DNA from: a virus
IMG/VR virus record: IMGVR_UViG_3300045988_159010
Reading direction: 5' to 3' (one strand)
Length of the DNA stretch: 31,825 nucleotides
The position numbers and the translations under genes are program-made. The notes beneath the pieces are model-generated. The model did not search any database, was not told the origin of the DNA, and worked only from the letters and a program-made list of their open reading frames with translations. Numbering within the stretch: the stretch's first letter is position 1; each line of letters starts with the position of its first letter. Below are positions 1 to 31,825 of the stretch, in pieces.

Positions 1-1
1 A

Positions 2-3000
2 TTAACTTATGTATATTCTAAAGGAACTAATGTATATGTAAAAGTACCAGGCGGTGATTTTACTCAAAAAAAAACTATTGAAGGCAAAGCATCTGCTACT
101 TCTTATACAGAAGAAGAATATAATGATTTATCTTAGCAAGTAGTCGAAATAAGTGAAATATATAGTAATGGTAATGAATATGGTATCTTAGCTTATGCAC
201 CAGAACCTAAAAAGGAAGAAGAAGAAACTCCAAAAGATGATAAAAATAATTCATCAAATGATACAGAAGAAGGTACTGCAACTGATACTTAGGCTGAAGA
301 TAGTAAAGAACCGATAGAAGAGGAAGAAGATAAAAGTAAATATTATGAATAGGTAATTTATGAAAATGATAATCTCACTGAAGATGTAATTTTTACTAGT
401 TTATTAACTACTTATCCTCGTATTATGATTTAGGCCGATTTTAGAACATAGTTTTATGGAACAATGATGGCTGGTAATTATGGATTAAAAATTGATTTTG
501 TAGAAAAAGATACAGGTATTGTTTTTAGTCGTAGATTAGATATTATAAATTTCTCTGGTAGTATTTACGATTATGAAGTATTTTCACCATAGTATGTAAT
601 TTATGATTTAACTGGAATTAATTTAATTGGCATAAAAAAAATTACATTTTTTCAAGAAAGATTTTTAAGATATGATACTGTTTTTAACGGCAAAGGTGAG
701 ATAACTGCGGTTTATGATAAAGAGCCTAATCTTTTTGTTAAAAATATAAAACTTAATTTTGTTGATGTCCAAGATTCTACTAAAGATTTATATTATGTAG
801 GTATTAGTGCGCCATAGGGTTTATCATTAATTCAAGATACCGATAAAATAAAATTAATAGGTGTTTTTTATTATGCTAATAAGAATATATTAGAAGAAAA
901 AACTTGCAAATGTTATTGGTATAAATAGAATCCGGCAGTTCTATCTGGTAGTGAAAAATATGATTAGATAGGCGGCCCTGGGTGGGAATGTATTAATGAT
1001 AGTTCTAATGTAAGATTTAATGAACTAATTATTTCGGGCAAAGATGTATATCAATAGATGCGATATAAATTAGTGGTAGTATATAATTCTAATGTTACTT
1101 TATATAAAGATATTAGAGTAGTTAAATATTATAATGAACGATTTACTATAATTCCGCAATTTATTAGTGAAAATGAAGTTAAATTATCTATTGTAGATTC
1201 ATTAGAAACTATTAACGAAGCTGATTGGTATGTTGATTTGATGGATGGATCATATTTACCTTTATCTACTGGAGTTAGTTAGATTGATATAAGTTAGTTT
1301 TTAGAATATGGTAATGTAATATTTTATACTGTTAGTAAATTAGATACTGGTGATTATGTACCTTGCGAATACAAATTAATTACTTATAAACAAGAATCGC
1401 CTGTGCGAGTAGTATTTAGTGGGACAGATACTTTTTAGTATGATGACAATGGTAGTATTTCTTTAGATTAGGCTAATAAAGAAATAATTATTACTCCAAC
1501 TATTAGCGTAGATAAAGAAAATATAGGAGTTAAAAGTGTTACTTGGTATTCACCCGATGGAGGAGAACTTTTAGAATACCCTACTACTAAAATTACTAAT
1601 TCAATGCTTTCAAAGCTTTGGATAGATAAAACTAATAATGCTTTACATTATTATATTAAACCTAAATATGTAGATACTTATACTAATAATACCTTATCAT
1701 TAAAAGTAATAACATTAGCTGATAAAGAATTTAAGTTTAATAAAAGTATTGTTTTTATTAAACCAGGTGACTCAACAGTTAGTGGTTTAGATTATCAATT
1801 AATTATTAAAGATTGCAATGCTGATGGCAGTGAACTTGACACTAAACCTATTAATAAAAAAAGTGGGTCTGATTATGAACCAATTTATCTCATGCCAGAA
1901 GTAAGATATAATGGTAATAAAATAATAAATGGTTCTGCTTATTAGGATGCCGTTGGTAATGCTACAGATAAATATAAAATAACTGTTGAAGCAGATCCCA
2001 TCAATTTAGATTGTAAAAAAGTAAATAAAGAAAAAAATGTATTTAAAATTTCAAATCCAGTTGAAGATTGTAAGGGTTAGTATTTTATAAAATTTAAAGT
2101 AACTATAGGGTTAGAAAATAAAGCTATTACAAATTAGACTTTATATTATTACAAGCCTATAATGGTTAGCACTGATTTTGTAGTTAATAGCATTGGTAAT
2201 ATTAATATACCTTCTAAAATTACTTATAATGAAAAGGGAACTCCTTCTTTAATAAATAAATAGATTTCTTTTATGTATAAATATGATGGTAAAAAATTTA
2301 TTGATTTATTATAGGTTACTAATCCAGTGTCTCTTACTGATTATATAATTATAGTTAATTCTACTAATTCTGATAATGTGAAATAGCAATATCTTAGACC
2401 GCAAGAAAATTATCCAGGTGCTTATTTTGCTAAATCTACTGACCAAGTAAAAACTGTCCCTATGGGTGCGTTATAGATTTTTTTACCAGATAATAAGGGC
2501 AGTTTATTTTATCCAATAGTAATGCTTAATAATAAAGATATTACTATTATAACAGATGAAGATAATAATGGTACTAATATACCTGTGCTTGATGAAGATA
2601 CTGTAGAATCTGAAAAACCTCTTGATCCAGGATTTTCTCATGGTAGACCTTGGGCACGAGATGAAGGCAAAACTTATGTAGGTTCTTTATGGGAAAACAA
2701 GCGTAGAAAATATACTTTACCTATTGAAGATCCGGGAAAAGATTTAGAAATTTAGACATTGAGTTTAGAAGCTGAAGAAGAACCACTAGAAGAATCAGAT
2801 AGTTCAGGATTTGTTTCAGGATTATATCAATATGATATAGATGGTATTCCTACTAATATTTTGCGTTCTGATGGAGTTGTAAAATTAGCAGGAGATGCTT
2901 TATGTTTTAATGTTGATGGTTCTATTTAGTTAAAAGAAGAAAGTGTAACTAATATTTTAACAGTAGCTAAATTATTAAATGAGATAGCTACAAATGCTGA

Positions 3001-3073
3001 TTTAAAACAATAGTTATCTGATTATATTGCTCCTAAAAATATAAAATTACGTGATTGGTATATCGAAGAATGA
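2..3073 (+). CDS. Large virion structural protein, 5' partial (>=1023 aa). Read in frame 2 through about 35 in-frame TAG codons; ends at TGA 3071-3073
   Basis: Frame 2 is open from the window start to TGA 3071, with no TAA/TGA in frame. The ORF-track pieces 1058-1282, 1604-1945 and 2522-2755 are all in frame 2 and each ends at TAG. The translation with TAG=Q is protein-like (beta-rich, Ig-like repeats, an LDPGF motif). A rho-independent terminator follows. Confidence 0.7.
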
Positions 3074-3102
3074 TGGATTTTTATCCATCATTCTTTTTTT
3101 TT
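3071..3102 (+). terminator. Rho-independent terminator after structural gene A
   Basis: Hairpin tgatgga-ttttta-tccatca followed by ttc plus a run of 9 T. Confidence 0.6.
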
Positions 3103-3122
3103 ATTTGGACCAAAATAGTATG

Positions 3123-3151
3123 TTTACAATATATAATTTTTAAAAATAAAT
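3123..3151 (+). promoter_or_regulatory. Putative sigma70/sigmaA-type promoter for structural gene B
   Basis: TTTACA (3123-3128), a 17-nt spacer, then ATAAAT (3146-3151). It lies about 30 nt upstream of the RBS AAAGGAGG (3166-3173) and ATG 3180. Confidence 0.3.
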
Positions 3152-3179
3152 AGAAATAAGAGTTAAAGGAGGTCAATAA

Positions 3180-6100: not shown

Positions 6101-6608
6101 TTATAGCGATCAAAAACTTGAATCTACTTTTGATTTATTATATAATAGTATAAATGAATTTTTAGATAAAGTTAAAGATGCTACAGAGTCCATCGAAGAA
6201 TTAGTAATAACTGGTACATAGTTATTAGAAAATTATAGACCTTTATCTGGATTAACTTTAAATAAATAGACTGACGCTTGGATGAATGGTTCAGATCAAT
6301 TAATTATATATAATTTTACTGGTATTGATAGTATCGAAATTGAAGCAGATGCTAATACAGATTTAGTTTTTTATAGAGAGTATGATCTTGATGCAACTAC
6401 TGGTAATTATCATCTTAGTTCTCCTGGCACTCATGTACGTATTGGACCTACTAATAAATTAGTTTTAAATCCTTTGAAAGATGAGATTGTTAAAGTAGAA
6501 TTTGTTAGACCTACTTATGCAATAATTAATTATAAATCTGTTTCGTCTTTAGAAGTTAAAAAAGGTAAGCAGAAAGAAAAAGATGAATCATAGGAGAAAA
6601 CGGAATGA
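3180..6608 (+). CDS. Large virion structural protein (about 1142 aa; tail or baseplate-like), about 30 in-frame TAG
   Basis: RBS AAAGGAGG plus ATG 3180 in frame 0. The ORF-track pieces 3588, 5115, 5748 and 6282 are all in frame 0 and each ends at TAG. Reading through by hand lands exactly on each next piece. Terminates at TGA 6606-6608, overlapping the next ATG (ATGA). Confidence 0.7.
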
Positions 6609-10204: not shown

Positions 10205-10215
10205 GGAGGTAAATA

Positions 10216-10917
10216 ATGGGAATTCAATTTAAACAAATTGTTTATAATTTAGAGGACTATGGTGGTTCTGGTGGATTAGTTTCTACTAAATAGGGAGATT
10301 TATCTGAATTAGTATATAGTGCTGTATATTAGAATAATTTAAATGATTCTACTGAAACTACTACAAATGATGAAACAGATTATGAAAATAAAAAAATAGA
10401 TATTTTTGGGGCTAATATTTTAAAAGGCTTCAATAATGTAAAAAAAATAGGCATTTAGGCACCCCCTGGTACTAAATTCACTTTTAATAAAGCAACTACG
10501 CAAGATACTGGGGAATGGATTATGGTTGGACGTACTGGTATTTATGAACTTAATGATGATATTGTAATTAATTATTTAAGATTTCAACGTCCTTAGAATT
10601 ATATTATAAATAAAGAATTGAGTCAATAGTTATAGGCTACTGGGACTGGAATAATGAAAGTAGCAAGAGATACATTTTTATAGAAAATTAATGATTTAGA
10701 AAAAACATTAGGTTCAGCTCCTGACCGCACTGAAGCTGGTTCAGAATATTGGACTGAATATAATAATGCTCATCAAAATTATATAACTTAGTATAAAAGC
10801 GGTTTAGGAATTTATTTAAAAGGTAAAGCAGGAGTATATGTACCTGATCCAACTATTGTAGATTTATATAATATAATTATAGACTTTACTTATGAAACAT
10901 ATGAAGGGGGAGAGTAA
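10216..10917 (+). CDS. Virion structural protein (233 aa), about 9 in-frame TAG
   Basis: RBS AAGGAGG (10203-10209) and ATG 10216 in frame 1. No ATG-to-stop ORF of 60 aa or more was called here because TAGs occur every 20-40 codons. Ends at TAA 10915-10917. Confidence 0.55.
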
Positions 10918-10920
10918 TAA

Positions 10921-13818: not shown

Positions 13819-13831
13819 GGAGGAATTTTAA

Positions 13832-14239
13832 ATGGATGCTCAATTAGTTGCGCAAATATTTCAAATTTGTATTATTCCTTTACTTGGAATTTTAACGACA
13901 TTCTTAGTTACTTGGATTAAATCTAAAAAGGACGCTTTAAAGCAACAAACAGATAGTGAATTAGCTAAAAAATATTTAGACATGCTTGATAATACAATTA
14001 CTGATTGTGTTATTGCAATGAATTAGACTTATGTTAATTCATTAAAATAGCAAGGAAAATTTGATGGTGAAGCTTAGAAAAAAGCATTTACTGATGTTTA
14101 TAATAAAGTAATTGCTATTTTAGGTCAAGATGCTATTGAATATTTGAATTCTGCTGTTGGAGATCTCAATGAATATATTTCTTCTAAAATTGAGAAAGAA
14201 GTTAATTCAAATAAAATTACTCCAACAGAAACAAAATAA
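13832..14239 (+). CDS. Holin (LL-H / phage_holin_6-like; single N-terminal TM, then charged tail), 135 aa with 3 in-frame TAG
   Basis: RBS AAGGAGG plus ATG 13832. N-terminal TM segment FQICIIPLLGILTTFLVTWI. After TAG=Q the central region reads QTYVNSLKQQGKFDGEAQKKAF, which resembles the conserved core of LL-H family holins. Lies directly after the tail genes and is followed by a strong terminator. Confidence 0.6.
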
Positions 14240-14243
14240 TAAA

Positions 14244-14279
14244 ATGGGAGAACCAATGCGGTTCTCCCATTTTTTTTTA
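14244..14279 (+). terminator. Rho-independent terminator after the holin
   Basis: Perfect 9-bp stem gggagaacc / ggttctccc, loop aatgc, then a run of 10 T. Confidence 0.8.
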
Positions 14280-14401
14280 TGCTTATTTATTATATTAAAA
14301 TGCCCTAAATTTTTTCCCAAAAATTTTGACAAAATTGGGAAATTATTTGACAATAATTTTTATATACCTATGGAAAGAATAAATAAGAAAGGATTTTAGT
14401 T

Positions 14402-15109: not shown

Positions 15110-15961
15110 ATGTTCAACACAAGTAATGGTTATAGTTTAGCTGATATTGCCGCGGCCACAGGCGGTAATGGATACCGTAATGGTGATGATGGTATGTGGG
15201 GTAATGGTGCATGGTGGATAATTATTCTTTTCCTTTTCTGCTTCAATGGCTGGGGCGGAAATGGCTGGGGTAATGGCGCCAATGGTTCTGGATATCAGGG
15301 AACTACAACAAGAGAAGAATTAACTTATGGCTTTGATGTAAGCGACATTAAGTCTGGCATTAATTCTTTACAGACAGGTTTATGTAATGGTTTTGCTGGC
15401 GTTAATAATAATTTATTAACTGGCTTTGCAGGCGTTACTGAAACTTTAAATGGAAATGCTCGTACCTTGCAATCTGATATTAGTAATTTAGGCATGAATG
15501 CTATGTAGAATACTTTTGGTATTACTCAAGCTATTAATGCTGATACTATTGCTAATATGTAGAACACAAACGCTCTTTCTCAGCAATTAAATAATATGGC
15601 AGCAACAAATGCTCATTGCTGCTGCGAGAATAAGAATCTTATTACATCAAGCTTCGCTGATTTAAATTATAATTTAGCAAGTCAAGCTTGTCAAAACCGT
15701 CAAGTAGTTAATGAAGGAGTAAGAGATATTATTGACAATACTAATGCTAGTATGCGTTCTATCCTTGATTTCCTTGTTCAAGATAAGATTGAAACTCTTA
15801 CTGCTGAAAATGCTACTCTTAAAGGTCAAATTTCTCAAAACTTACAGAATGCTTATTTAATAGACCAATTAAGCAGCAAAGCTCCTATCCCAGCTTATGT
15901 TGTTCAAAATCCTTATGCAGGAACTAATTATACTGGATGTGGATGCTAGTATACTGCTTAA
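15110..15961 (+). CDS. Gly/Trp-rich membrane protein (283 aa): GNGWG repeats, one TM (WWIIILFLFCF), Cys-rich C-terminus. 3 in-frame TAG
   Basis: RBS AAAGGAGG plus ATG 15110. ORF-track pieces 15110 and 15596 are both in frame 2 and are joined through TAGs. Ends at TAA 15959-15961. Confidence 0.55.
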
Positions 15962-15981: not shown

Positions 15982-16401
15982 ATGGAAATAACAGCTAATG
16001 CTTTACAAACGGTAAATGCCAATGGTAATGTAGTGTTTACTAATACCGCTGTTCCAGGTAGTTGCGCCATGGTTCATCGTGAAGGTAGCGGATTAGTAAC
16101 TTTACGAGGCATAACTAATCAATGTAGAGCCAGATTTAAGGTTACTTTTGGAGCTAATGTAGCTCTTCCAACTGGTGCAACTGTAGCTCCTATTTCTTTG
16201 GCAATAGCTATTAATGGGGAGCCTGTTGCAGAAACTACAATGATTTCAACTCCAACTGCAGTAGAATAGTTTAATAGTATTTCTCGTGCTTTATTTTTAA
16301 ATGTTCCACGTGGATGTTGCCAATAGATAAGTGTTGAGAATACCAGTGCTTCTGCCGTCAGTGTTGAAAATGCCAGTCTTATTATAGAAAGGGTGGCTTG
16401 A
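15982..16401 (+). CDS. BclA C-terminal-domain-like (C1q/TNF-fold) protein, 139 aa, 2 in-frame TAG
   Basis: RBS AAGAGG plus ATG 15982. The C-terminus ...SVENASLIIERVA closely parallels the Bacillus BclA / collagen-like exosporium protein C-terminus ...SIIIEKVA. The IAINGEPV segment matches the BclA beta-sandwich region IQVNGVPV. Ends at TGA 16399-16401. Confidence 0.55.
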
Positions 16402-16403: not shown

Positions 16404-16955
16404 ATGATGGAAAAATTATGTTAGATTAAAAATAGTTTAATAACTTTAGTTGAATAGCAAATGGCTAATCCTCAACAAGCAGATACCCATGAAATGGGAG
16501 AAGTTATTGATATGATTAAAGATTTGGCCGAAACTTGTTATTATGGATCAATCGTAGATGCTATGATAGGGAGTAAGGAAGAAGAAATTTATGGCATCGG
16601 TATGATGAAAGACCCTCGTAAACGTAAAAATCCATATCCTTATTATGTAAATAATGATTATTATGAAGATAAACATTATGGTAAGGATTATGATGGCGGA
16701 TATAACGGCTATAGTTATACAGGCACAGGCGGAATGAATGATGATAGTAAAAAAATGGGCCATAGCCCAATGAAGCGTAAATCTTACATTGAAAGTAAGG
16801 AACATCATATGGACTAGGCCCAATAGATGAGAGAGCTAGAAGATTATGCCCAAGTTCTAACTTCTGATCTTTTAGAAATGATTCAGGATGCTACTCCTGA
16901 AGAAAAACAATTATTACAAAGAAAGATAGCCACATTAGCTACAAAAATTGTATAA
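16404..16955 (+). CDS. Tyr/Gly/Asp-rich protein (183 aa), spore-coat-like composition. 6 in-frame TAG
   Basis: ATG 16404 lies 2 nt after the preceding TGA, in frame 0, and runs to TAA 16953-16955. It contains the ORF-track piece 16461-16817. Composition example: NPYPYYVNNDYYEDKHYGKDYDGGYNGYSYTGTGG. Confidence 0.5.
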
Positions 16956-17002: not shown

Positions 17003-17434
17003 TTATACATCATGGACAGGTAATTGGATTGCCCGTTCATAATAAGTCTTTGCTTGACCATTTCCGCCCAAGCTAGTATAAACTTTATAAAATTCTACTA
17101 ATTGTTCGTACTCACCATTTGTCATAAATCCTTGCTGGATATATGCTTTACATAATTGAGTCAATCTAAAACGATAAGAAGCTAAAATTACATCCATATG
17201 ATTATTTGCAATTTTATTGCTTTCTAGTACATACTTTCGTAATTCTTCAATTTCTTGACGAATTGGCTCAATATGAGTTTCAATTGTATTATCTAAAGTA
17301 CTATTCTCTTTTTCTTCAGTTAGTTTTTTATAAGTTTTCATTTTGCTATGAAGATGTTTGCAGAAAGCTAGGGCGCCCGCAGAAATTAATCCAAAAATAA
17401 TTTCAAGCAGATGTGTTGTGATAAATTCTAACAT
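17003..17434 (-). CDS. Hypothetical membrane protein (143 aa, N-terminal TM helix)
   Basis: Complete ORF with no internal TAG. RBS GGGAGGA. TACAAT and TTGGGA-like promoter elements lie upstream. TM segment LLEIIFGLISAGALAF. Confidence 0.5.
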   Translation of the reverse strand: MLEFITTHLLEIIFGLISAGALAFCKHLHSKMKTYKKLTEEKENSTLDNTIETHIEPIRQEIEELRKYVLESNKIANNHMDVILASYRFRLTQLCKAYIQQGFMTNGEYEQLVEFYKVYTSLGGNGQAKTYYERAIQLPVHDV

Positions 17435-17520: not shown

Positions 17521-18027
17521 TCATTCCCAATTTAATTCATCCTACTACGCTTTAAAATATGCAGTATATAAACATATAGCATCACAAACATCATCATTTG
17601 CTTCAATACCATATGTATCTTTTACATATTTTATGTCAAGAGGTTTAAGATTTTCACGTTTAATACCGCGGCCTGTTTTAATTCCTAAATTTTTTCGCCA
17701 TTCACTAGCTTGCATAAATTCTATGCTTTTGGAATTTATATTATCATTTACACTATGAGCACCAAGGACTATAGAGCCTTGAAGCCACATAAGTAAACGA
17801 GCTGTATCTGAGTAGCCATAAGCTTCTGGATGAACATCTTCAGCTATTAATTTTTCTATATTATACTATTTTACTAATTCAATAATTCCACTTTGTATCT
17901 TTTGGATACGGCTTACATTATTAGAAGAAGATGCAGTAATTAATCCATAAGTAATTAATTTACCTTTGTCATCTGATATAGCGTATCCAGTAGATTTTGT
18001 GGATAAGTCTAAAAATAAAAAATTCAT
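17521..18027 (-). CDS. ruvC: RuvC-like Holliday junction resolvase (168 aa), 3 in-frame TAG
   Basis: RBS GGAGGAG plus ATG 18027. The N-terminus MNFLFLDLSTKSTGYAI matches the RuvC catalytic-Asp motif, and the C-terminus has DDVCDAICL. The ORF track stops at TAG 17545, but two consecutive TAGs are read through to TGA 17521-17523. Confidence 0.65.
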
Positions 18028-18069
18028 ATAAATCTCCTCCTATTATAGAAGGAGATTATTATTTATTGA

Positions 18070-18618
18070 TTAATTATTAACGTCCTTACTGGTTGAACCA
18101 AATCCGCCAATTCTTGTACCTTTAGCTTTATCATCATCTGTAATAAGATAATTACGAATAATCCCTTGACCAATAATATCGCCCTTGGCAATTTCAATAT
18201 CAAAAGGTGAGAGATTAATTAATTGAAAATAAATATGACCCTCATTATCAGGATTGTTATAATAATCAGCATCAATGATGCCAACACTATTAGCCATAAT
18301 AATCCAATGCTTTAAGGGTAAAGAAGAACGAACAGATAGTTCAAGGAATTGTCCATCTTCCATATGGCACTTCATTCCAGTAGGGATAAGAGTAGGTTTT
18401 AAATTAAGTCCCTTAGTAATTTTAGCCATATCATTCAAAGAAATAATATCGTTAGTAGCTGCCCCATTTTTAAAAACTTCTACAATATGGGTATATGAAG
18501 GAATTACAACATCTTCAGCAGATGCAAAATCATAACCAGCACTATATTTAGTCTTACGTTCTGGCATTGGTAAATCCCAATTATTATATTTACTTACCTT
18601 TTCAAAATAAATACTCAT
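18070..18618 (-). CDS. dut: dUTPase
   Basis: Motifs SAGYD, GIIDADY and RIGGFGSTS. No TAG. Ends at TAA. Confidence 0.85.
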   Translation of the reverse strand: MSIYFEKVSKYNNWDLPMPERKTKYSAGYDFASAEDVVIPSYTHIVEVFKNGAATNDIISLNDMAKITKGLNLKPTLIPTGMKCHMEDGQFLELSVRSSLPLKHWIIMANSVGIIDADYYNNPDNEGHIYFQLINLSPFDIEIAKGDIIGQGIIRNYLITDDDKAKGTRIGGFGSTSKDVNN

Positions 18619-18893
18619 TAGTTAATTATAGTCTCCCCGTCAAAATTAGTTCTGGTTGTATAACAAAGTGAAATATGATCTGTCGGTTCTTTTTCATCAT
18701 TAAATTTTTTTACAAGGGTTACTTGATACCATTCATCAATAATCTCGCCCTTCTATTTACGTTCTTTCTTTGTAGAAGAATATTTAGCTAAATCATATTC
18801 TCTATCCTACTTAGCATTATTAATAAGCTCAGCTGCTTCTTTTTCTGTGTCTACTCTATATACTTCAGTAGTATTAATTAAATATTCAAACAT
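18618..18893 (-). CDS. Hypothetical protein (91 aa), 2 in-frame TAG
   Basis: RBS GGAGAA plus ATG 18893. Its TAA overlaps the dut ATG (TAATG). Confidence 0.45.
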
Positions 18894-18904
18894 ATTTTCT
18901 CCTA

Positions 18905-19165
18905 TTAATTTACATAAACTTTAATATTATTATTACTATACTTAGTAATTAAAGAATTTTCAATAGTTTCTTTAAGACCTTCGCCATAAGTTTGATTACC
19001 ATAAAGATGAATATCACTATCTTTATATTGTTCTGATAGCTTAGTTAAAGTATCACTAAGATTATCAAGACGGCAAGTGCAAACCATAATAGGCTTTTTA
19101 TCATTTGGACCTTGGTAATAAATAATTTGTGTTGTATTAAATAAATCAAAATAAGTAAATAACAT
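18905..19165 (-). CDS. Hypothetical protein (86 aa)
   Basis: Complete ORF. RBS GGAGA. Ends at TAA. Confidence 0.45.
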   Translation of the reverse strand: MLFTYFDLFNTTQIIYYQGPNDKKPIMVCTCRLDNLSDTLTKLSEQYKDSDIHLYGNQTYGEGLKETIENSLITKYSNNNIKVYVN

Positions 19166-19167
19166 AA

Positions 19168-19683
19168 TTATCTCCCTATCACTGGAACAATGCCAGCATC
19201 ATAATCAAATAAATGATAGCAATGAGTTTCATCGTTATTTGTAATCCAAATTTCAACTGCCCCAGAGCCACTATCATTAATGTCTTTAATCTGTCCTAAA
19301 TCTTTAATAATATCATAAACGGCGGAAGTCATATTAAGATAAGGATTATCATTGCTCAAGCTATTAGTTTCAAATACTGTATAATAATTTAGTTCATTAC
19401 ACAAAAGCATAAAATACTTATCAGAACTTTCTTGAACATAGGTATCAATAACTTCTAATTTTTTATCTATTTCTTCTGGAGTTAGTTCTTTCATTTGGCC
19501 AATTACACATTTATTTAATTCATAATTGCTCATTTTAAAATCGACGCCATCTGCTAATACACCCCATTCAGTGCCGGACCAGACATAATTATGGGTATCA
19601 GTAGTATTATAGAATACATCTCCTGCTTTTGGTTCTTTCTATATTGCTTCTTCTAAATTGGCAATCTTTCCTCTGTATCTCAT
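19168..19683 (-). CDS. Hypothetical protein (171 aa), 1 in-frame TAG
   Basis: RBS GGAG plus ATG 19683, which overlaps the nrdG TAA (TAATG). The frame continues through a TAG into the ORF-track piece 19168-19533. Confidence 0.5.
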
Positions 19684-20168
19684 TAATTCATCTCCTTTAA
19701 GTTTATAATATTTTGATTTTTACTACCTCTCATTGATAATGTAATATCTCTTTGAGACTGAATATATGGACCATCAATTAATACATCAGCTTTTTTAAGA
19801 ATTTCTTGAAGCTTACCATTAGTAGTTTGCTTAATTAAATCGTCATAATAATATCCAGTCCAAACATAAATTTTAGTATCAGGAAGCTTTTCTTTAATTG
19901 TATTAATAAGAAGTAGAGTGAGTAATTGATTTTGTTCACATAATGGTTCACCACCCATTATACAAAAATTTCTATGAATGCCATTAGCTTGAAGGGCTTG
20001 AAATATTTCTCCAAAAGTCTCATTAGTAAATTCTTTACCTTTTTCGAAATCCCAAGTTTCAGGATTATGACATCCAAAGCAATGATGTGGGCAACCTTGG
20101 GTGAAAAAGGAGACACATACTCCCGGAGCTGCGGCTATATCATTTTTTATAATTCCTGCGTATTTCAT
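19683..20168 (-). CDS. nrdG: Anaerobic ribonucleotide reductase activating protein (radical SAM)
   Basis: CxxxCxxC cluster GCPHHCFGC. The real start MKYAGI at 20168 follows RBS GGAGG and overlaps the upstream TGA (ATGA). No TAG. Confidence 0.8.
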   Translation of the reverse strand: MKYAGIIKNDIAAAPGVCVSFFTQGCPHHCFGCHNPETWDFEKGKEFTNETFGEIFQALQANGIHRNFCIMGGEPLCEQNQLLTLLLINTIKEKLPDTKIYVWTGYYYDDLIKQTTNGKLQEILKKADVLIDGPYIQSQRDITLSMRGSKNQNIINLKEMN

Positions 20169-20512
20169 TCTATAACCTCCCAAGAACAACAATATAAATC
20201 ACAGCAAGGTATAATTACTTGTTCTAACATTTCTTCATTATCATAATTTTTAGATATTTTTACCTTATTAAATCTATAACCTCTAACGTTATGTTTTATT
20301 GGAGTCCATATCCATTGTTCATTATTTTCTTGCCATTCTATACGGGTTTTCGATATTCTAATTGGTGTAATATTATTTTTATTCAAATAATCATAAACTT
20401 CTTGGGAATTATCCGTTATATAAGCACATATTACTATCTAATTAGAACAAGGATATTTTCTTCCTTCTTCCTAATTAAAATAGTTAGCTAAATCATAAAT
20501 TGAACGTCTCAT
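20165..20512 (-). CDS. Small Cys-rich hypothetical protein (115 aa) between nrdD and nrdG, 2 in-frame TAG
   Basis: ATG 20512 overlaps the nrdD TGA (ATGA). C-terminus CCDLYCCSW. The ORF-track piece 20165-20386 is its 3' part. Confidence 0.45.
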
Positions 20513-22773: not shown

Positions 22774-22784
22774 TTTAACCTCCG

Positions 22785-22828
22785 CACTAAATATAGTATA
22801 AATTTTTGAACTTATACTATATTTAGTG
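22785..22828 (-). promoter_or_regulatory. Tandem NrdR-box-like palindromes (17-bp perfect inverted repeat, 10-bp spacer) immediately upstream of the nrdD RBS
   Basis: CACTAAATATAGTATAA, a 10-nt spacer, then TTATACTATATTTAGTG. Each arm is close to the NrdR box consensus acaCwAtATaTwGtgt. The centres are about 29 bp apart and overlap the likely -10 region. Confidence 0.45.
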
Positions 22829-22864
22829 TTTATTATTAATTCATTATCTACTTTGGGTTAAGAT

Positions 22865-23434
22865 TTAGTACCAAAACCAATCATAATCTGTAATTATATC
22901 ACAGCATTTTAATCTATCTCTTTCCGTTTCATTAAATAAAATTTGCATATTATCAAAATTTATATTTTTAAAGTCTTCTTCATCAGCAGAATAACGTCTA
23001 ATAATTTCTTTGATATTAGGGTATTCTTCTCTATTTAATTGACGAAGGAAACGCTGTTTATCAGAAGCATGAATATAATATATTCGTAAATCAATTTCTG
23101 AAAAATTGATTAATGATCTAATCCCAGAAGGATTAAAAATACCTATATTAATTTTATCATCAGCTAAACATTTAATACCAGTTCCATACCACCAATTATT
23201 AAATTGAACATATTCAAGCATTTGATTATTATTTATCATTTGCTTAAAATCTTCTTCAGATATAAAATGATATTCTTTTCCTTCTGTCTCTCCCTCACGC
23301 ATTGGACGAGTTGTATAAGAAACAACAATATTCATAGGTAATTCATAAGCTTTTACTACATCTTTTAAAATAGTATCTTTGCCTGAACCGGCTTTACCTA
23401 TAAGTGCGACTAATTGATATTTTTTATTATTCAT
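22865..23434 (-). CDS. gmk: Guanylate kinase-like nucleoside monophosphate kinase
   Basis: P-loop GKAGSGKDT and the guanylate kinase signature TTRPMREGETEGKEYHFISEEDF. No TAG. Confidence 0.7.
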   Translation of the reverse strand: MNNKKYQLVALIGKAGSGKDTILKDVVKAYELPMNIVVSYTTRPMREGETEGKEYHFISEEDFKQMINNNQMLEYVQFNNWWYGTGIKCLADDKINIGIFNPSGIRSLINFSEIDLRIYYIHASDKQRFLRQLNREEYPNIKEIIRRYSADEEDFKNINFDNMQILFNETERDRLKCCDIITDYDWFWY

Positions 23435-23683
23435 TTATTATTCCTTCTATTAAAAGACTAAAAACAATATTTACCATTACAACAATTATAAGAACACGAT
23501 CCTAAAAACTATGTTAAAAGGCATAAGATATCTGGAGTATATACCATCCAATAATCATTTCCATTTAACTCTCTTATAATTACTCTAAGATAAGGAGTCT
23601 ATTCAAATTTAATTAAAATTGTTCCTCTAATTTCAATATATTGATGGGTTTTTAACAAATCCTATAATTCATCATAATCAATT

Positions 23684-26600
23684 TTATTCTTCATCTTCTG
23701 CTACTCCTTGATATCGTTCACTTCTTAAAATTAAATCCCCATTTGATTGAATAGTGTCAATATGATAAAGTTGATGACCAGCAGTTGAGGCATATTTTTT
23801 AGCGATGAAATCATCGCCTGAACGGATACCTTGAACTACAATCATATTGCCCCGATTAAACCAAGATTTTTCAATAATTTTTTTAGTTCCATCAGGTTGT
23901 TTTTGAGAAATTTGTTTATCGAATAATGTAAAATATTCTTTTCTAAATTTTACATTTACTACTCCTGTTGGAGTAAGAATTGTTACAATACTTTTATTTT
24001 TATTTTTAGCAATACAAGTACCGCATAATTTAGATAAATAATAAATATTTATTGTTTTTCCAGCTTTAACAAAACTTCTTTCTACTACTGGATCTTCAGG
24101 TAAGTTATAAAAATCAGCGAAGCCATATTTACTTTGATTAACTTGAGCCAATTCATGTTCATGATAATAGAAGCATAATACTTCCATTTCCCAAGCTGAA
24201 TAATTTACTTTAGGACAATATTTTTTCCAATCGTCTTTAAATATAATTTCATTTAATTTATTTAAAATTTCTTTTTTATTATCAGCAATTTGTTTACGAT
24301 AAATATCCATCCAACCTTGATAAACTTTATCATTCCAATCTTTAATATTTAAATAAAAATTAGAATCTTTACTCTGAATTAAATCATCTTTATCAATTTT
24401 TTGTAAGAACTCAATAGCTCTATCATCCAATTTGTAATAAACTTTATCATATTTACAAATTTGTTTTAAATAACGAGTAAATTCATAAATGTGTAAAGCT
24501 TGCTGCCGTTCAAGAGTATCTGCAGGAAGAAGATTGAATTTCATTAAAGTAGCTAAATTTTGAAGATTAAGATTTTTCTTTTTATCACAAGTTTCCCAAA
24601 TATACCAGACCATACAAAGTTTTCTATCCATCATATGATCAAATGCTCCCCCTTTAATAAGTGAAATCATTGCTTGCTTATTAGGATTAACCTTATTTAA
24701 AAAATCTCTTGGGGATTTATAAGGTCTATTTTCAATAATAGTTTTAACTACATCATCACCAACATTTAGCATACCTTTTAAGCCAAATAGGATTTGATTA
24801 TTTTCAACGTCAGGAATAAAACTAAATTCTGATTTATTAATATCAGCAAGGCTTACTTGAATACCAGCTTTACGAATATCTCCAATAGCTTTAGCGATCT
24901 TTCCATAGTCAGTAGAATTAGTTTTTCTTACTTTAGATTTTTTATCAGGCAAATCTTCAAAAGTAACTCCATTAGCTAAATCATCTGCTTCTGGATCATA
25001 AATATCTACAATTTCTTCTTCACTATTGTCTTCCAAAGATCCACTATTAACAATCAGACAAGCACAATTCCAATAGATAGGATTATAATGAATAACAAAA
25101 TAAATCATTTGAATAGCCACAAAAGAATAAGGAAGAGAGTGATTTAAGCTAAAAGCATATCCTAATTGCGGTGCAACTGCTGTTTCCCAGAAATATTCTG
25201 CATCATTTTTATTATTAAAGCGACTAAATACTTGTTCTTTTAATTGAGGAATCTTAGCCATTTGTTTTTTAGCAACAACTTTACGAGCTGAATTAGCTTC
25301 ACCCAATGTAAAGTGTGCTATATCCATAAGGATTTCCATCATTTGCTCTTGTAAAGGGCAACAACCATAATATTTATCACAATGTTTATGGAATTTATCA
25401 ATAAGCTCTTGCGGCAAATGATGTTGTTTCATTTCTTGATCAAATGCTTGGATACCTTGATGCTGAATACGATAAAATCTATCTTGTTGTGATTCCTTAC
25501 CTTTTTCAGACATAAGACGCATCATGGCATTAGCCGCAGTCATTTCCATAGGATCTTGTGGTTTTAGTTTTTTAGCAATCGCTAAACCAACACCAGTAGA
25601 GAACTAGAAGCAGTCTAATACATCACCGGCTGCAAGATGATCCCAAATGCTTTGATCTGTTGTATCTATTACTTCTGGATGAATATATTGATTATAAAAA
25701 TCTCTTAAAGATAAGTCAGGAATTTCTTTTGCCTTTAATAATAATTCATAACAAGTAATAATTTTGTCAGAAGCTTCAGTAACAAGGAAATCATATTTTG
25801 TATCACCTGCTGCTTCAGCTTGATGTAAATCCCAACAAGTAATTAAACTGCCACTAGGCGTTCTCATAAATGCTGCTGTATCATATGGGTCATCACCATA
25901 AAGAATAACACCGGAAGCATGAGAAGAACGTTTATTAACAATACCACCAATATAAATAATTATATCAAGAAGACCTGGGTATTCATTTACTTTATTAATA
26001 AATGTTTTTACAGGCTTTCTATCTTTTTCTTCATTACCATAAATAACATCATTAATTTCCCATAAAAATCCACGCTCTTGCGGAATAAGAGAAGACATAT
26101 ATTGGGCTTCATCTACATCAATACCATTTGGATAATCATCAGATCTATAACCTCTACAAGCCGTAAGAATAGCAGATTTAGTAGTTTCAGTACCAAATGT
26201 AGCTACCTGAATTAATCCTAATTCTCCACGTTCTTTACGGATAGCTTCAAAAATGGCTGGACGCTTTGAAGGAGCCAAATCAATATCAATATCAGGCAAT
26301 TCAGCTCTCTCTTTATTCAAGAATCTCCAATATGGTAAACCCCATCGAATTGGATCCAATTGGGTTATTCCCAATAGATAATTAGATAAGAAGCCTGTGG
26401 CCGAACCACGTCCAGGACCTACTATTGAGCCACAATTCCAAAACAAATCAATATAATGTTTAAAAGTATTAAAATAAGCAAAAAGGCAATCATCTAATTT
26501 TTCGCCAATATCTCTTATAATATCAGCTTCAATTTCAAGACGAGCTAAATAATTTTCATTATAATAAAGTTGTTTTTCTTGTAAAGCTTTAATACATTCA

Positions 26601-27664
26601 TTTATCCAATATCGTTCTTGAATATTATCACTATTAATTAAAGAACAAATAATAGGATATTTATCAATCCATTCTATAGGGATAAAACCTTTTTTATAAT
26701 CTAATACTTCTACTTTTGGAATTATTTGTTTTCTCTCAAGAGAAAAATCTTCAATTTTATTTTGAATTTCAAGAGTATTATTTAAAATTTCTTTAGCTAT
26801 TTCTTCTGGTTGTTCTTCAATATCTAAATATATAAAACAAGGGACAATTAATTCAAAAACTTCATCATAAGTCATTAAATGAGCAAATTCATAAAACTTG
26901 TCAACTTCTCGTTCTCCATCTTTTGAATTAAGATAAGCTTTATGAATTGGTCTATCTTCTTTCGTTAAATAATGGCTATCAGTAGCAACTTCTACTTTAA
27001 TTCCATATTTATGACCGATTTTATAAATCATATGGTTTACAAGTTTTTGATCTGCCGCGGTCGATGGAGCAATTTCTAAATAGAAATCGTCACCAAATAA
27101 GTCTTGACAGAAAGTAAGAAAAGTATCTATTTGTTTTAAAATTTGATACAATTCATAATTATTTTCTTGTTCTTTATATTCTACAGCTTTTAAAAGACAA
27201 GTACCTAATTCTCCACCAATACATGCAGTAGTGGCAATTAAATGCCCCTTATATTTCTCTACTACTGATTTTAATTCATTCTTTAAAAGTGGAACACGTT
27301 CCATTTTTCTATCAACATATAAATTTTGCCAAGCAATTGAGCTTAATTCTTTTAATGCTCGATATCCTATAGCATCTTTAGCAATTAAAATAAAATGGTA
27401 ATACTTTTGTCCTGTGCTTCTATCATCAGTTAAATAAATTTCATTGCCTAATGCTATTTTAAAATTTGGATATTTTTCTTTGATTTTTTTAGCATATTGA
27501 TTTACTGTCATATGAGCAGAAAGACTTTCGTGATCTGTGATAGCAATTCCCGAAAGTCCTAATTCAATAGCTTTATCAATTAAAGTTTCTGGCTTATTTA
27601 TACAATCCAGTAAACGGAGGTTCGAATAATCAGTATGATTATGGCAACCAAAATAAGTATTCAA
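23684..27664 (-). CDS. dnaE: DNA polymerase III alpha subunit (DnaE-type, N-terminal PHP domain), 1326 aa. One gene containing a single in-frame TAG at 25604-25606
   Basis: PHP motifs HNHTDYS and ITDHESL. RBS AAGGAGG plus a TTG start at 27664. ORF-track pieces 25604-27664 and 23684-25549 are in the same frame. The 18 codons between them (FSTGVGLAIAKKLKPQDP) have no stop. Ends at TAA. Confidence 0.85.
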
Positions 27665-27702
27665 TTCCCTACCTCCTTAATTTATTATTATTTTCTATAA
27701 AT

Positions 27703-27731
27703 ATTATATCATAAAATTTCATCAAAATCAA
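27703..27731 (-). promoter_or_regulatory. SigmaA-type promoter for dnaE
   Basis: On the - strand: TTGATT, a 17-nt spacer, then TATAAT. It sits about 30 nt upstream of the dnaE RBS. Confidence 0.5.
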
Positions 27732-27733
27732 TT

Positions 27734-27925
27734 TTAAAAATCATCTATCTAATTAGCTATTCTATTTATGATACCGGCTAATTCAATTAAATTCTATTTA
27801 TATGTTGATAAATTATTTTTTAATTTTTGATTTTCATTGCGTAAATAATTAATTTGGTTTTGATTTTGTTGTTGTTGTAGATCTAACTCATGACCTAGCT
27901 AATTAAGCAAATTTTGTATTTCCAT
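27734..27925 (-). CDS. Small coiled-coil protein (63 aa), 3 in-frame TAG
   Basis: RBS GGAG plus ATG 27925, which overlaps the upstream TAA (TAATG). With TAG=Q the sequence reads LQQQQNQNQINYLRNENQKLKNNL. Confidence 0.4.
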
Positions 27926-28524
27926 TATTCTATAATCTCCAAATGATAATTATTTTTTTCATTTAAACAGTCCAAAAGAGTATAAAATAAACTATGATAA
28001 TAAGGTGGAACCCATTCTGGAGATAAACAGATAAAATATTTATCATAAGAATTAGCAAATTTAAATTCTTTAAATGGTATTTTGTTATATTCAAAAGGTA
28101 CTTCATAATTAGGATTCCAAGAATTATTATTATGAACCCAAGTATAACTTTTTAATTTATTCTAATCATAGAAATATTTAACCCAATCAGCACAACTACA
28201 ATCACACAATTTATTTTCTGCGTCTTTAGGATTATAAAAAATATCATGATGATGATCTATATTAGTTATATTTAAATCATAATCATATTGTAAATATTCT
28301 TTTATTTTATTATGACCATAAGAAATATAAATAGAAGTTGTTTTATCTATAGTTCGTAATAAATATCTAAGTATATTAGAATAAATATTTAAATCAGCAG
28401 GAGTTGTTGTAAGATTGGGTAAACTTTTTAATAAATCATCCCAATTAGTCCCAGGAACCATATTATTATATAAATTAATACTTGGTGCCATAATAATATC
28501 AAAATCTATGCTTAATACATTCAT
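27925..28524 (-). CDS. Hypothetical protein (199 aa, IDHHHD motif), 1 in-frame TAG
   Basis: RBS AAGGAA plus ATG 28524. The ORF-track piece 28162-28524 extends through a TAG to TAA 27925-27927. Confidence 0.45.
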
Positions 28525-28527
28525 ATA

Positions 28528-29646
28528 TTATTTCCTTATAACTACTAATTTTTCACTGGCTCTTGTAATGCCAGTATATAAATATTTCTAATGTTCTAAT
28601 GTATCAAAAGGATGGGCTTCTTCAATTAATAACACTTTATCCCATTCACTACCTTGAGCTTTCCAAACAGTTATTGCATAAGCATAAGCAAAATAATAAG
28701 GAGCTTCTAATGCATCAGAATTTCTAGCAAAACTATTCATTCTAAATGCTTGCTTATTATCAAAGGCTGGAGTACCTGTAATTAAAGCCTCATAATCAAT
28801 AGGTATAGATTCAAATCTTCCATTGGGTATATCCATCCCCGTAAACATATACTGAAGTTGTTTATTATAAATAAAGCTTGGATAATTATATGGAATAATT
28901 TGATAATTAGTAATCGTTCCAATACATCCATTAGTTAAAGGCCATAAACCATCAGTAGATGTAAAATCCCAATGGTTAGTTAATCCTATAATTTTATCTC
29001 CTATTTCTGGAGTAGCTCCTCGTCCTTGTCGCTCTCGAACTTTATTATTAATTTTAATACGTCTTTTATTAGATGCACATAAAGTTTGATCTGCCCAATC
29101 ATACATTTCTGGAATTAATTCATATGGCCTTAAAATCTAGACCTATTCTTTAGCTACTGGGAATTGCCCAAGGGGTTTACCTTCTCGTACCCACATAGAT
29201 AATCTAATAATTTCACTATCTTGGGCCTGTCGCATAATTTCATCTAAAAAGATATGCGGCTTATCTAAGACATGATTATCTTCATTTTGGTCTACTGGAG
29301 GAAGCTAAAAGGGATCACCACAAGCAATTACATATTTATGGTGAGAAAGAAGTAAATCCCACATTGTTTTAGGTAACATTGATATTTCATCTACAATGAT
29401 TACTTTATATGGAATAGGCCATCTTTTTTTTAAATAAAATGTACCATTAGGTCTTGGTTTAGCTTCATATAGTAATTTATGTGCTGTTGTTGCATTAGGA
29501 CATCCTTTTGTTTGAAGAACAGTAGCTGCTTTGCCAGTATAAGCTACATATGCTACATCAGTTTCAGGATTTAAATTCAATGATTGAACTATAAATTTTA
29601 CTAATGTAGATTTACCCGTTCCAGTTAAGCATAGCCAGCAATACAA
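28528..29646 (-). CDS. Dda/RecD-like SF1 ATP-dependent DNA helicase (about 372 aa), 3 in-frame TAG. N-terminus uncertain (TTG start)
   Basis: Walker A LTGTGKST and Walker B IIVDEISM. With TAG=Q the motif GDPFQLPPV is restored. Further motifs ITVWKAQGSEWDKV and LYTGITRASEKLVVI. ORF-track pieces 29305-29646 and 28588-29106 are in the same frame and are joined through TAGs. Confidence 0.75.
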
Positions 29647-29706
29647 GTATAAGGTTCACGGCTCTTGTATCTGGCTACGGCAATTTTCAATCCAGCATTC
29701 TATTTA

Positions 29707-30120
29707 TCAGTTAGTATCAATGGGATTTACTTCTCCTTTCCATATAAATTCATCATTTTCAAAGACTACCTTCATTGGTTTTTCTTGAGCTGTTGGAATA
29801 ATATAAACATAATCTTCATCAAATGGCATTTTTAATCTACTATCACCATTTTCATCAAAAATTTCTAAATCATATTTTCGATTTGAGCTTTCGGTCTCTA
29901 CGCCTGCTCTTGGCCGGAGCATAGCCATCTTTTTGTTGCCCTTGCCGCCCCTAATTTCATAGGCATCACAAGGAGCTATTTTATTAAATTCATCAAGGTT
30001 AGCTATTAAATCATTAATAGCTTTTCCAGCTTCTTCAGCTGAAATACCAAAGCTACCCCAAGAAGTAGCCATTTTATTTATAAGTTTATTAAATTCATCT
30101 TCATTGAACGAAGTATTCAT
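29707..30120 (-). CDS. Hypothetical protein (137 aa)
   Basis: Complete ORF ending in TGA. Overlaps the upstream gene by 20 nt. Confidence 0.4.
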   Translation of the reverse strand: MNTSFNEDEFNKLINKMATSWGSFGISAEEAGKAINDLIANLDEFNKIAPCDAYEIRGGKGNKKMAMLRPRAGVETESSNRKYDLEIFDENGDSRLKMPFDEDYVYIIPTAQEKPMKVVFENDEFIWKGEVNPIDTN

Positions 30121-30829
30121 AGGCTATTGTTGCATATTGTTGTCTAACATAATTTGATTGCGGTAATCCTCTTTCATAGCATTTCATAAAAGCTAAAGCA
30201 GCTTCTTGCTCATTTTCCAATTCTAAAAATTTTTCAAAATTAAAATTATTTGAATAACAAAAACCAAACATATCAATTTGATATTTAATATCATCACGAA
30301 GAAAATCCATTTGGCCCTTTAGGTCTGCACCCCATACTTCATCAGTAAATACCTGATTCCATTGACATAATCCATAAAATCCATTACCATAAATAGTAGT
30401 TTGCAAATCTAAAGTCCCGCCACCAACCTCAGCCATCATATTACCTAAAATACCAGCACATACGTAATTATTCCAGCCAAGATTTTTCATATATTCCCAA
30501 ATAAGAGTAGCGTCCTTGTATTCAAGGTCATCTAATTCTTTATTAATTTTATCTAATTGATTTTGATAAAATTTAATAATTTCATTATAAAAATACCACT
30601 GACTTTTAGCACTTATAATTGGTTGACTATTTTCTGTATAACCAATCATTCGAGCTTTATCAGCCACTAAATGCACTTCTTCTTTTTTCAATGTATATTC
30701 TTCAATTAAATTGATAAGTTCCCAATAATTATTGGTTTCTTTTAAAGGAGTATATTCAACAGCTATTGCACTTACATTAATAGTTAAAATTAAAAGAATA
30801 CTAATAATTATAATAATTTTTGTTTTCAT
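30101..30829 (-). CDS. Secreted protein with a putative lysozyme-like (phage tail lysozyme family) domain
   Basis: Sec-type signal peptide MKTKIIIIISILLILTINVSA. The segment GILGNMMAEVGGG...GLCQWN resembles the GNxxxESG...GxxQW signature of the phage tail lysozyme family, as recalled from memory. Confidence 0.4.
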   Translation of the reverse strand: MKTKIIIIISILLILTINVSAIAVEYTPLKETNNYWELINLIEEYTLKKEEVHLVADKARMIGYTENSQPIISAKSQWYFYNEIIKFYQNQLDKINKELDDLEYKDATLIWEYMKNLGWNNYVCAGILGNMMAEVGGGTLDLQTTIYGNGFYGLCQWNQVFTDEVWGADLKGQMDFLRDDIKYQIDMFGFCYSNNFNFEKFLELENEQEAALAFMKCYERGLPQSNYVRQQYATIAYEYFVQ

Positions 30830-30846
30830 ATTTTTCTCTCTATCTA

Positions 30847-31825
30847 TTAAAAATAATATTTTACATTTTTAGTAATATGATAATCAGTAATAAAAATTTC
30901 TGGATTAGTTTTTCCTAAAAATTCATTTATTTTACAAGTACCTATAATATCAATAATAATACATCCTGTATCACTATGTAAATTATTATATTCTTCTTGA
31001 TTGACATTAAATTTAATTAAATCTAAATCATTTGGTAATTTAATCTTTAATGTTCCAGTAGTCTCTTTAGGATAATAAATTACATTATTATTTGTAAGTT
31101 TTAAATTTTTAATAACTATATATGGCTCTTTAAAATTCTATCCCCATAAAGGTTCAAATTCTGGTATTTCTAATATAGTATTTATATCAATATTATTACT
31201 ATCAAAAATATAATCGGCTAAATAAACTGGCTAACCATCATAACCATACAATTTACTATTTGTATCTGTTATAAATTTTCTTATATTGCTATCTGCGATT
31301 TTCGCACCAAAAGCTCCCTAATGACCTTCTGCAAATTCAAAATATCCAGTAGAGTTAAGATAAGCCTTAAAATCTTTTATAGGCTCAAAAAACTCATAGC
31401 CACGACCTGATCCTTCCCAGTATTTTATTCCATTTTCAATTACTTCATTAAGTATAAGAGTTGGCTTCTAAAATCTATTTGCAAATTCATTTGCAATTAA
31501 TCCAGTTAAATTTTTATTTACCTCATACTTTTTCTCCAACTAAACAACTAAAATCTAATCATTTAATAAACCTTGTTCTTCGATTAATTTCTCAATTATT
31601 TCAACATTAGTATCACGGATCTTAGTCTATCGCGTTTTTACATTACCACTTACTCGGCATGCTTGTTCTACAATAGTTTCTGCCTATCCTTTACATCCTC
31701 TTTTGGTTGATGGAACTAAATCATAAGCAAGAAAATCTAACATACTCTAAAATACAACTTGTCGTTCATCAATTTCTCCAACACGTGTGACTGCATTAAT
31801 AAGTGGAGCAATATAAAAAGCAACA
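30847..31825 (-). CDS. RecJ-like DHH-family exonuclease, C-terminal (DHHA1) part. 5' partial at the window edge. About 9 in-frame TAG
   Basis: DHHA1-type motif FAEGHQGAFGAKI, cf. GGGHxxAAG. The frame stays open from the window end through TAGs to TAA 30847-30849. Confidence 0.5.

Follow-up and report, generated by a model that had tools for sequence, protein, structure and literature searches.

Genetic code 15, in which TAG is read as glutamine (Gln) and not as a stop, was first reported from metagenomic phages. Recoding of this kind has been catalogued in Lak, crAss-like, Garnet, Amethyst, Jade and Sapphire phages, together with a bias towards late genes and the presence of suppressor tRNAs (10.1101/2021.08.26.457843), and Gln at UAG has been validated by metaproteomics in the crAss-like phages only (PMC9523058). 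Code 15 has also been described in the phAss-1 group, for which the name Phassvirus was proposed (PMC10607447), and the NCBI taxonomy holds a 'Caudoviricetes code 15 clade' (phAss-1, OQ749652). The subject of this report is a stretch of viral DNA of 31,825 bp and 28% G+C, IMG/VR record IMGVR_UViG_3300045988_159010 (hereafter the window, by which the whole stretch is meant), whose genes are interrupted by in-frame TAG codons. Comparison of these genes with their relatives indicates that the window is very probably part of a gut tailed phage of about 188 kb and 28% G+C that uses code 15, with UAG decoded as Gln and UAA and UGA as the sole terminators. The phenomenon is well known, and the phage is a further case of documented code-15 recoding.

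The recoded phages surveyed by Borges et al. resemble this lineage in the assignment of TAG to Gln, in having structural and lysis genes that are richest in TAG next to replication genes of variable TAG content, and in encoding a tRNA with a CUA anticodon, tRNA(CUA); a genome of about 188 kb also lies within the size range stated for their large clades, and Firmicutes are given as the hosts of their Jade clade (10.1101/2021.08.26.457843). In contrast to those phages, no 'code-change module' of release factor and aminoacyl-tRNA synthetase (aaRS) genes was encountered in the sequence screened here, and TAGs also occur inside essential motifs of replication enzymes. The phage phAss-1 is likewise a human-gut phage with code 15, a DnaE-type polymerase and NrdD/NrdG (PMC10607447). 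It further shares the succession of a rightward structural and a leftward replication module, a suppressor tRNA(CUA) within a tRNA cluster, and the absence of a dedicated aaRS (here, none in the screened sequence). The two nevertheless differ in sequence (DnaE 38% and NrdD 40% identical in amino acids), in genome size (136 kb in phAss-1 against about 188 kb) and in tRNA content, as phAss-1 carries 36 tRNAs, with three suppressors of which two are directly beside nrdD, whereas this lineage has four to seven tRNA genes and one suppressor far from nrdD. Members of Phassvirus share 80-86% nucleotide identity (PMC10607447); a megablast search of 25 kb against INPHARED returned no match, and with this result and the DnaE and NrdD identities just given the phage does not fall within Phassvirus.

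The code-15 crAss-like phages also read TAG as Gln and have recoded late genes (PMC9523058), but they belong to an unrelated lineage with an unrelated probable host phylum. The polymerase encoded here is of the DnaE type, with its nearest counterparts in SPbeta-, EF1- and phiCD211-like phages of Bacillota. The closest DnaE sequences in GenBank, which align over 99% of the length with about 38% identity, come from SPbeta-like and Enterococcus EF1-like phages, which use the standard code; these phages have a large siphovirus-style replication module in common with this lineage but are not recoded and show no detectable nucleotide similarity to it. The window DnaE is equally close to phAss-1 and to these standard-code phages. 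The established picture of code-15 recoding is left unchanged by the findings in the window. What they contribute to the code-15 catalogue is a well-sampled, low-G+C phage of about 188 kb with an SPbeta-like replication module, and clean natural cases of Gln-to-TAG codon turnover that include a new TAG in an essential DnaE motif, the latter bearing on how strictly recoding separates early from late expression.

Coding density and in-frame TAG codons

Under the standard code the window contains 28 open reading frames (ORFs) of at least 100 amino acids, which sum to 5,317 amino acids and of which the longest has 690. With TAG as a sense codon the figures rise to 32 ORFs, a sum of 10,987 and a longest frame of 1,330 amino acids, for 10,608 codons per strand, while treating TGA as sense brings scarcely any gain (6,280 amino acids). 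A first-pass annotation, made from the sequence alone, had held that the standard code shatters the locus and that gene calls with translation tables 15 and 11 should differ in coding density and ORF length. Both expectations are borne out, as ORF content is about halved under the standard code and the tail and lysis region takes on the look of pseudogenes. Annotation of this phage therefore needs translation table 15, since table 11 loses half of the coding capacity, including an adjacent tape-measure gene that in the reference relative (described below) encodes 3,107 amino acids.

The map obtained with TAG as sense comprises 27 genes that cover 96.2% of the window (Table 1), arranged as a rightward block (2-16955) followed by a leftward block (17003-31824). 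Most gene boundaries fall between -11 and +20 nt, and four are 4-nt overlaps of the ATGA type; 18 genes end in TAA and nine in TGA, in agreement with the earlier statement that genes of this element stop at TAA or TGA and often overlap the next start. Over the 10,212 codons of these genes there are 152 in-frame TAGs, distributed over 19 genes, and not a single in-frame TAA or TGA, for which the probability is about 10^-471 given an off-frame rate of TAA plus TGA of 10% of codons. It should be noted that a gene truly terminated by TAG would merely look extended, so that this test of TAA/TGA-only termination is strong, not absolute. Recoding of TGA (codes 4 and 25) finds no counterpart in the window, where none of the 27 genes has an in-frame TGA and nine end with it.

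Matches to Pfam and PHROG families run across the in-frame TAGs of the window genes, and in-frame TAGs combined with continuous domains place the phage among the recoded Caudoviricetes of code 15 (TAG to Gln). The anaerobic ribonucleotide reductase NrdD, for example, matches positions 2-562 of the 562 positions of the Pfam NRDD model across its TAGs (E = 1e-143), and the seven TAGs attributed to its gene on first inspection were all counted. The same holds for the interruption of RuvC, which proved to be a RuvC-like resolvase (phrog_827) with three TAGs. The gene singled out earlier as an LL-H-like holin does have TAGs, three in number, and is a holin by its match to phrog_13712, but its resemblance to LL-H was not recovered, as no Pfam holin family, LL-H included, was matched.

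The fragmentation of the late region under the standard code is also what would speak for pseudogene decay under that code, the TAGs having arisen by nonsense mutation or through errors of assembly. Such decay is at odds with the count of 152 TAGs against no TAA or TGA, with the conservation of most TAG sites in independent contigs, with the full-length domain matches that cross TAGs, and with the non-random direction of changes at TAG sites, which go to CAA or CAG; its probability is negligible.

The residue encoded by TAG

The identity of the residue can be approached from the codons that replace TAG in relatives. Among relatives of 93-97% nucleotide identity to the window, the codons found at window TAGs in the two first compared (L002 and L003, 94-97%) were TAG in 187 cases, CAA in 11 and CAG in eight, with no other codon, and the remaining close relatives add just three exceptions to CAA/CAG (CGT, AAA). 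As a change from TAG to CAA takes two base changes, it is the mark of synonymous exchange. In more divergent relatives (65-87% amino-acid identity), Q stood opposite TAG 57 times, K 19 times, E 11 times, and S and A six times each, besides other residues. When these residues were scored in a likelihood test with empirical substitution profiles, derived for every amino acid from the same alignments, Gln obtained a log-likelihood of -315, compared with -451 for Lys and -523 for Glu, and so leads by 136 and 208 units, respectively.

Two TAGs lie on residues that are invariant among homologues. The single TAG of the DnaE gene was found at 25604-25606, where it had been placed in the first-pass annotation; CAG or CAA occupies this site in seven of seven relatives, and it corresponds to the invariant Q of the FQ(L/F)ES motif, aligned to GVFQLES/GVFQLDG in solved structures of Pol III alpha. 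The helicase reads ACGDPF-TAG-LPPV, so the proposal that a TAG restores GDPFQLPPV holds, and this TAG (29305) coincides, in alignments with RecD2, 9kwf and Dda, with their motif III Q (GDxxQLPPV). In both enzymes, then, homologues carry Gln at the TAG position. The run in which TAG is interspersed with CAA, cited earlier as a sign of Gln, was located in the Gln-rich gene of the late block (Table 1). When TAG is counted as Gln, the Gln content of late genes amounts to 4.6% and that of early genes to 4.2%, which are normal levels. Moreover, more than 100 near-identical, full-length NrdD sequences (754/761 amino acids) are present among public proteins, from contigs of 183-192 kb, with Q at the TAG positions. 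Where a relative has retained TAG, as is mostly the case in L002 and L003, the Q of the public protein can only stem from translation of TAG as Gln; automated gene callers apparently already treat the lineage as recoded.

Not every site points the same way, and NrdD in particular supplies evidence that weighs against Gln. Some of its TAG sites correspond to K, E, D, N, V or S in solved NrdD structures, these being variable positions, and the NrdD of Thomasclavelia phage TR-TP1, the nearest phage homologue with the standard code (69% identical), has S, D, K, Q and Q at the five TAG sites that can be aligned. The suggestion that the C-terminal TAG of NrdD stands at a conserved Gln was thus correct for TR-TP1, which has Q there, but not for the solved structures, which have D or N. 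The TR-TP1 gene, which is also the closest NrdD in GenBank (L001 3001-6124), consists of two coding sequences split by the insertion of an HNH endonuclease.

That TAG is a sense codon for some other residue, such as pyrrolysine, Lys, Glu or Tyr, might be argued from K and E, which rank second and third opposite TAG in the divergent relatives, from the label 'Pyl' that ARAGORN gives to the tRNA(CUA) of this lineage (discussed below), a label that reflects the anticodon only, and from the similarity of that tRNA to other tRNAs, which does not point to Gln alone. K and E are, however, the usual substitutes for Q, and the exchange of TAG with CAA and CAG only in L002 and L003, the lead of the Gln model in the likelihood test, and the TAGs on the invariant Gln of DnaE and of helicase motif III all argue for Gln, making another residue extremely unlikely. 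Pyrrolysine decoding as such was set aside in view of the alternation of TAG with CAA and CAG; no search aimed at the pyl genes (pylTSBCD) was made. Taken from the comparative data, the view that TAG is a sense codon encoding Gln, and that termination would be by TAA and TGA only, is supported, as the first-pass annotation had proposed.

Conservation of stop codons and read-through

Among stop codons aligned in 13 relatives, 103 of 109 were identical; TGA was replaced by TAA twice, and TAA by TAG once. This sole case occurs in L014 (65% identical in amino acids), in the orthologue of the window stop at 10915-10917, which ends the 233-amino-acid gene. Were the TAG of L014 read as Gln, that gene would join in frame with the next gene of 965 amino acids, one codon off.

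The reference relative of the window is IMGVR_UViG_3300045988_152007 (188,474 bp; 95-97% nucleotide identity), in which a tape-measure-like ORF (L011 406-9729) adjoins window position 1 on the upstream side. The 3,107 codons of this ORF include 108 TAGs, and it is the most heavily recoded gene observed. With 108 TAGs in one gene, inefficient read-through is excluded as the mechanism.

This bears on the alternative that TAG is still a stop, subject to leaky or context-dependent read-through at low efficiency rather than to full reassignment. A TAG three to ten codons before the end of several genes (NrdD, the RuvC-like gene and 3180-6608), the TAG found in one relative where the window has TAA, and the consideration that TAG must stop translation until the suppressor accumulates would fit leakiness. 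Against this, inefficient read-through of 108 TAGs in the reference tape-measure gene, or of the 18-26 in each tail gene, would leave practically no complete protein, TAG is not required as the terminator of any of the 27 genes, and stops switch between TAA and TGA but to TAG only once in 109 comparisons. Low-efficiency read-through is accordingly rated as very unlikely next to full reassignment of TAG to Gln.

Distribution of TAG between late and early genes

Out of the 248 Gln codons in the rightward late genes, 117 (47%) are TAG, compared with 35 out of 198 (18%) in the leftward block (odds ratio 4.2, p = 4e-11), and eight of the 27 window genes have no TAG at all. The first-pass claim that TAG is a sense codon throughout the element was therefore right as to its being a sense codon (152 TAGs in the set of 27 genes), yet overstated as to uniformity, given the TAG-free genes and the approximately fourfold late enrichment. 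A similar pattern is seen in the reference relative, of which 92 kb was stitched for the distribution of TAG. Its structural genes have TAG at near 50% of Gln codons, whereas a block of ligase, GyrA, GyrB and RNase H genes at 157.6-164.6 kb has no or almost no TAG, and a single TAG occurs among the larger, presumably early, genes at 171.8-184.7 kb. A TAG-bearing endolysin/holin pair is located between these TAG-poor blocks, at 165.3-167.1 kb (L016, L058, L138).

Following the timing model of Borges et al., this skew may mean that full expression of the late genes would depend on the earlier build-up of the suppressor tRNA. Nevertheless, suppression is also needed by NrdD (seven TAGs), by RecJ, whose full gene has 14, by the helicase (four, of which one is in motif III), and by DnaB (three) and primase (two). 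The TAG in DnaE is specific to the window genome (the dnaE gene of the reference relative, 1,333 codons long, lacks TAG altogether) and looks like a recent change from CAG to TAG at an invariant residue of the catalytic domain, in a gene that otherwise avoids TAG. In view of the internal TAGs in NrdD, RecJ and the helicase, and here in DnaE as well, gating of late genes cannot be strict.

The suppressor tRNA and the decoding machinery

A tRNA with a CUA anticodon, the presence of which had been anticipated elsewhere in the genome, was found in contigs of the same species and not in the window. The first of these, L148 (IMGVR_UViG_3300045988_164919), is 96-97% identical to the reference relative; L229 (OIXL01000006.1, 188,902 bp) is 97.5% identical to L148, and L231 (OIZL01002220.1) is a fragment that is 96% identical to it. 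The cluster was encountered only in these contigs, which reach beyond the end of the reference contig. The tRNA cluster of L148 has the order tRNA-Thr, tRNA-Pro, tRNA-Gln(UUG), tRNA-Tyr, ROOL RNA, tRNA(CUA), tRNA-Leu(UAA), tRNA-Gly. Its tRNA(CUA) scores 49 bits with the Rfam tRNA model, and the 75-nt sequence is identical in L148 and L229 and present as a variant in L231. Projected on the genome, the gene would be about 42 kb past the right end of the window, at the head of a long leftward array that holds replication genes.

Several results weigh against this account of the decoding system. ARAGORN and Rfam found no tRNA or other known RNA in the window, there is no tRNA in positions 96,456-188,474 of the reference contig, and the surroundings are tRNA-free to about 40 kb past the right end and about 20 kb past the left end of the window; runs of ARAGORN with relaxed thresholds and introns allowed gave obvious false positives only, which were discarded. 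As no tRNA is in or near the window, the suppressor is tied to this phage through other contigs of the species and not through the same molecule. Furthermore, tRNA(CUA) is no nearer to tRNA-Gln than to others, with 61-66% identity to many isotypes among phage tRNAs, and because sequence similarity singles out no isotype, the amino acid that it carries cannot be read from its sequence. The release factor 2 (RF2, prfB) gene that was sought along with the tRNA did not appear: the class I release-factor motif GGQ[HNS][VI]N, as in RF2, was absent from all loci retrieved, by a crude regular expression and not a profile search. An equally crude regular expression for the HIGH and KMSKS pair of class I aaRSs found none in about 110 kb of the phage's sequence, about 86 kb of the genome being outside this coverage. 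On the other hand, accessory genes for the code change, such as RF2 and glutaminyl-tRNA synthetase (GlnRS), are not a defining trait and are present in some code-15 members only.

A mechanism in keeping with these data would have an enzyme of the host charge the phage tRNA(CUA) with Gln, and the charged tRNA out-compete host release factor 1 (RF1), in a host that itself probably uses the standard code.

The host and its genetic code

The low G+C content and the nearest homologues point to Bacillota as the probable host phylum. The endolysin has just one full-length match in the genome collection, a contig of this phage (L149, CAMELE010000010.1, 60.6 kb) at 97% identity, and its amidase domain is spread widely in Clostridia, making host prediction from endolysin homologues ambiguous. 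The matching contig was binned in a metagenome-assembled genome (MAG) labelled 'uncultured Mollicutes bacterium', which may be a hint of the host or a binning artefact.

From the phage contig binned with the 'uncultured Mollicutes' MAG, one could imagine a bacterium that itself decodes TAG as Gln, its phage simply mirroring the host code, and the TAGs in replication as well as late genes would agree with this. Against this, the phage has its own tRNA(CUA), and eight of the window genes and whole multi-gene blocks of the reference relative avoid TAG, the pattern expected if early translation takes place on the standard code. Code 15 is not known from any bacterium. Standard-code hosts have been predicted for recoded phages of this kind (10.1101/2021.08.26.457843). 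A recoded host is therefore considered very unlikely, and the standard-code host of the mechanism given above is preferred.

A different emphasis, itself unlikely, would be that UAG decoding is needed from the replication stage onward and is not just a timer for late genes. It would fit the TAGs at the motif III Gln of the helicase, inside the cores of NrdD and RecJ and, in this genome alone, at the DnaE motif Gln, as well as the place of the suppressor tRNA at the head of the array with the replication genes. If the host were of a Bacillota or 'Mollicutes' type without GlnRS, charging a tRNA of CUA anticodon with Gln would require either that glutamyl-tRNA synthetase (GluRS) and GatCAB accept this tRNA or that an unrecognised phage factor take part, and a recoding system would then use a charging route not described so far.

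Gene content of the window

The genes of the window are listed in Table 1, with those of the leftward block identified by Pfam and PHROGs. Two leftward ORFs called from their first ATG, 29707-30177 and 30101-30829, overlap by 77 nt, and the start and stop relations of the upstream gene are uncertain. The helicase ORF starts right at its own P-loop, and its N-terminus may be mis-set.

Table 1. Genes of the window as ORFs read with TAG as sense; 2..3073 and 30847..31824 are C-terminal parts.
Product	Coordinates	Strand	Family or domain	In-frame TAG	Stop and remarks
Tail-region structural protein, C-terminal 1023 codons	2..3073	+		24	TGA; 1098-aa ORF in reference relative
Structural protein, 1142 aa	3180..6608	+	phrog_30026	26	TGA
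Tail protein, 1199 aa	6605..10204	+	phrog_32343, phrog_1887	18	TAA; start overlaps preceding stop (ATGA)
233-aa protein	10216..10917	+		8	TAA
Structural protein, 965 aa	10921..13818	+		21	TAA
Holin	13832..14239	+	phrog_13712	3 (14024, 14048, 14075)	TAA
Gln-rich protein, 143 aa	14402..14833	+	phrog_21718	8	includes AGT TAG TAG CAA TAG CCA at 14477
283-aa protein	15110..15961	+	phrog_16490	3	TAA
139-aa protein	15982..16401	+	phrog_20016	2	TGA
183-aa protein	16404..16955	+		4	TAA; final gene of rightward late module
143-aa protein	17003..17434	-	phrog_4257	0	
RuvC-like Holliday junction resolvase	17521..18027	-	phrog_827	3 (17866, 17545, 17542)	TGA
dUTPase	18070..18618	-	Pfam	0	
91-aa protein	18618..18893	-		2	TAA
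86-aa protein	18905..19165	-		0	TAA
171-aa protein	19168..19683	-		1	TAA
NrdG activating enzyme	19683..20168	-	Fer4_12, Radical_SAM	0	
115-aa protein	20165..20512	-		2	TGA
NrdD anaerobic ribonucleotide reductase, 754 aa	20509..22773	-	NRDD	7 (22678, 22555, 21589, 21445, 21121, 20620, 20518)	TGA
Guanylate kinase	22865..23434	-	Pfam	0	
87-aa protein	23431..23694	-		4	TGA
DnaE-type DNA polymerase III alpha	23684..27664	-	PHP, pol3 alpha, finger, HHH	1 (25604-25606)	
199-aa protein	27925..28524	-		1	
RecD/Dda-like SF1 helicase	28528..29646	-		4 (29305, 29143, 29137, 28588)	
156-aa protein	29707..30177	-		1	TGA
Secreted lysozyme-like protein	30101..30829	-	Phage_lysozyme2	0	
RecJ-like exonuclease, C-terminal 325 codons	30847..31824	-	RecJ OB domain	9	14 TAG in full 580-aa gene of reference relative

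Surroundings of the tRNA cluster

The ROOL RNA of L148 is full length (RF03087, 320 bits) and occupies positions 4123-4716 between tRNA-Tyr and tRNA(CUA). Further along the cluster, tRNA-Leu(UAA) (5785-5818 and about 6557-6610) is interrupted in its anticodon loop, where U34 is followed by some 740 nt of inserted sequence with an ORF for an HNH endonuclease (6002-6448). The insert looks like a group I intron at the classical tRNA-Leu position; Rfam called no intron family in it at the gathering threshold. About 530 nt of the insert, the HNH ORF included, is without counterpart in the near-identical L229. A RAGATH-33 RNA motif (RF03102, 139 bits) is found at 6622-6734, directly downstream of the split tRNA-Leu. 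Several radical-SAM/SPASM-like ORFs are located beside the tRNA cluster (L229 2899-7997), and the leftward array encodes, about 20 kb from the cluster, a repetitive protein of 286 amino acids with a very high content of Cys, Gly and Ser (L058 6949-7809); together these represent unusual cargo for a phage.

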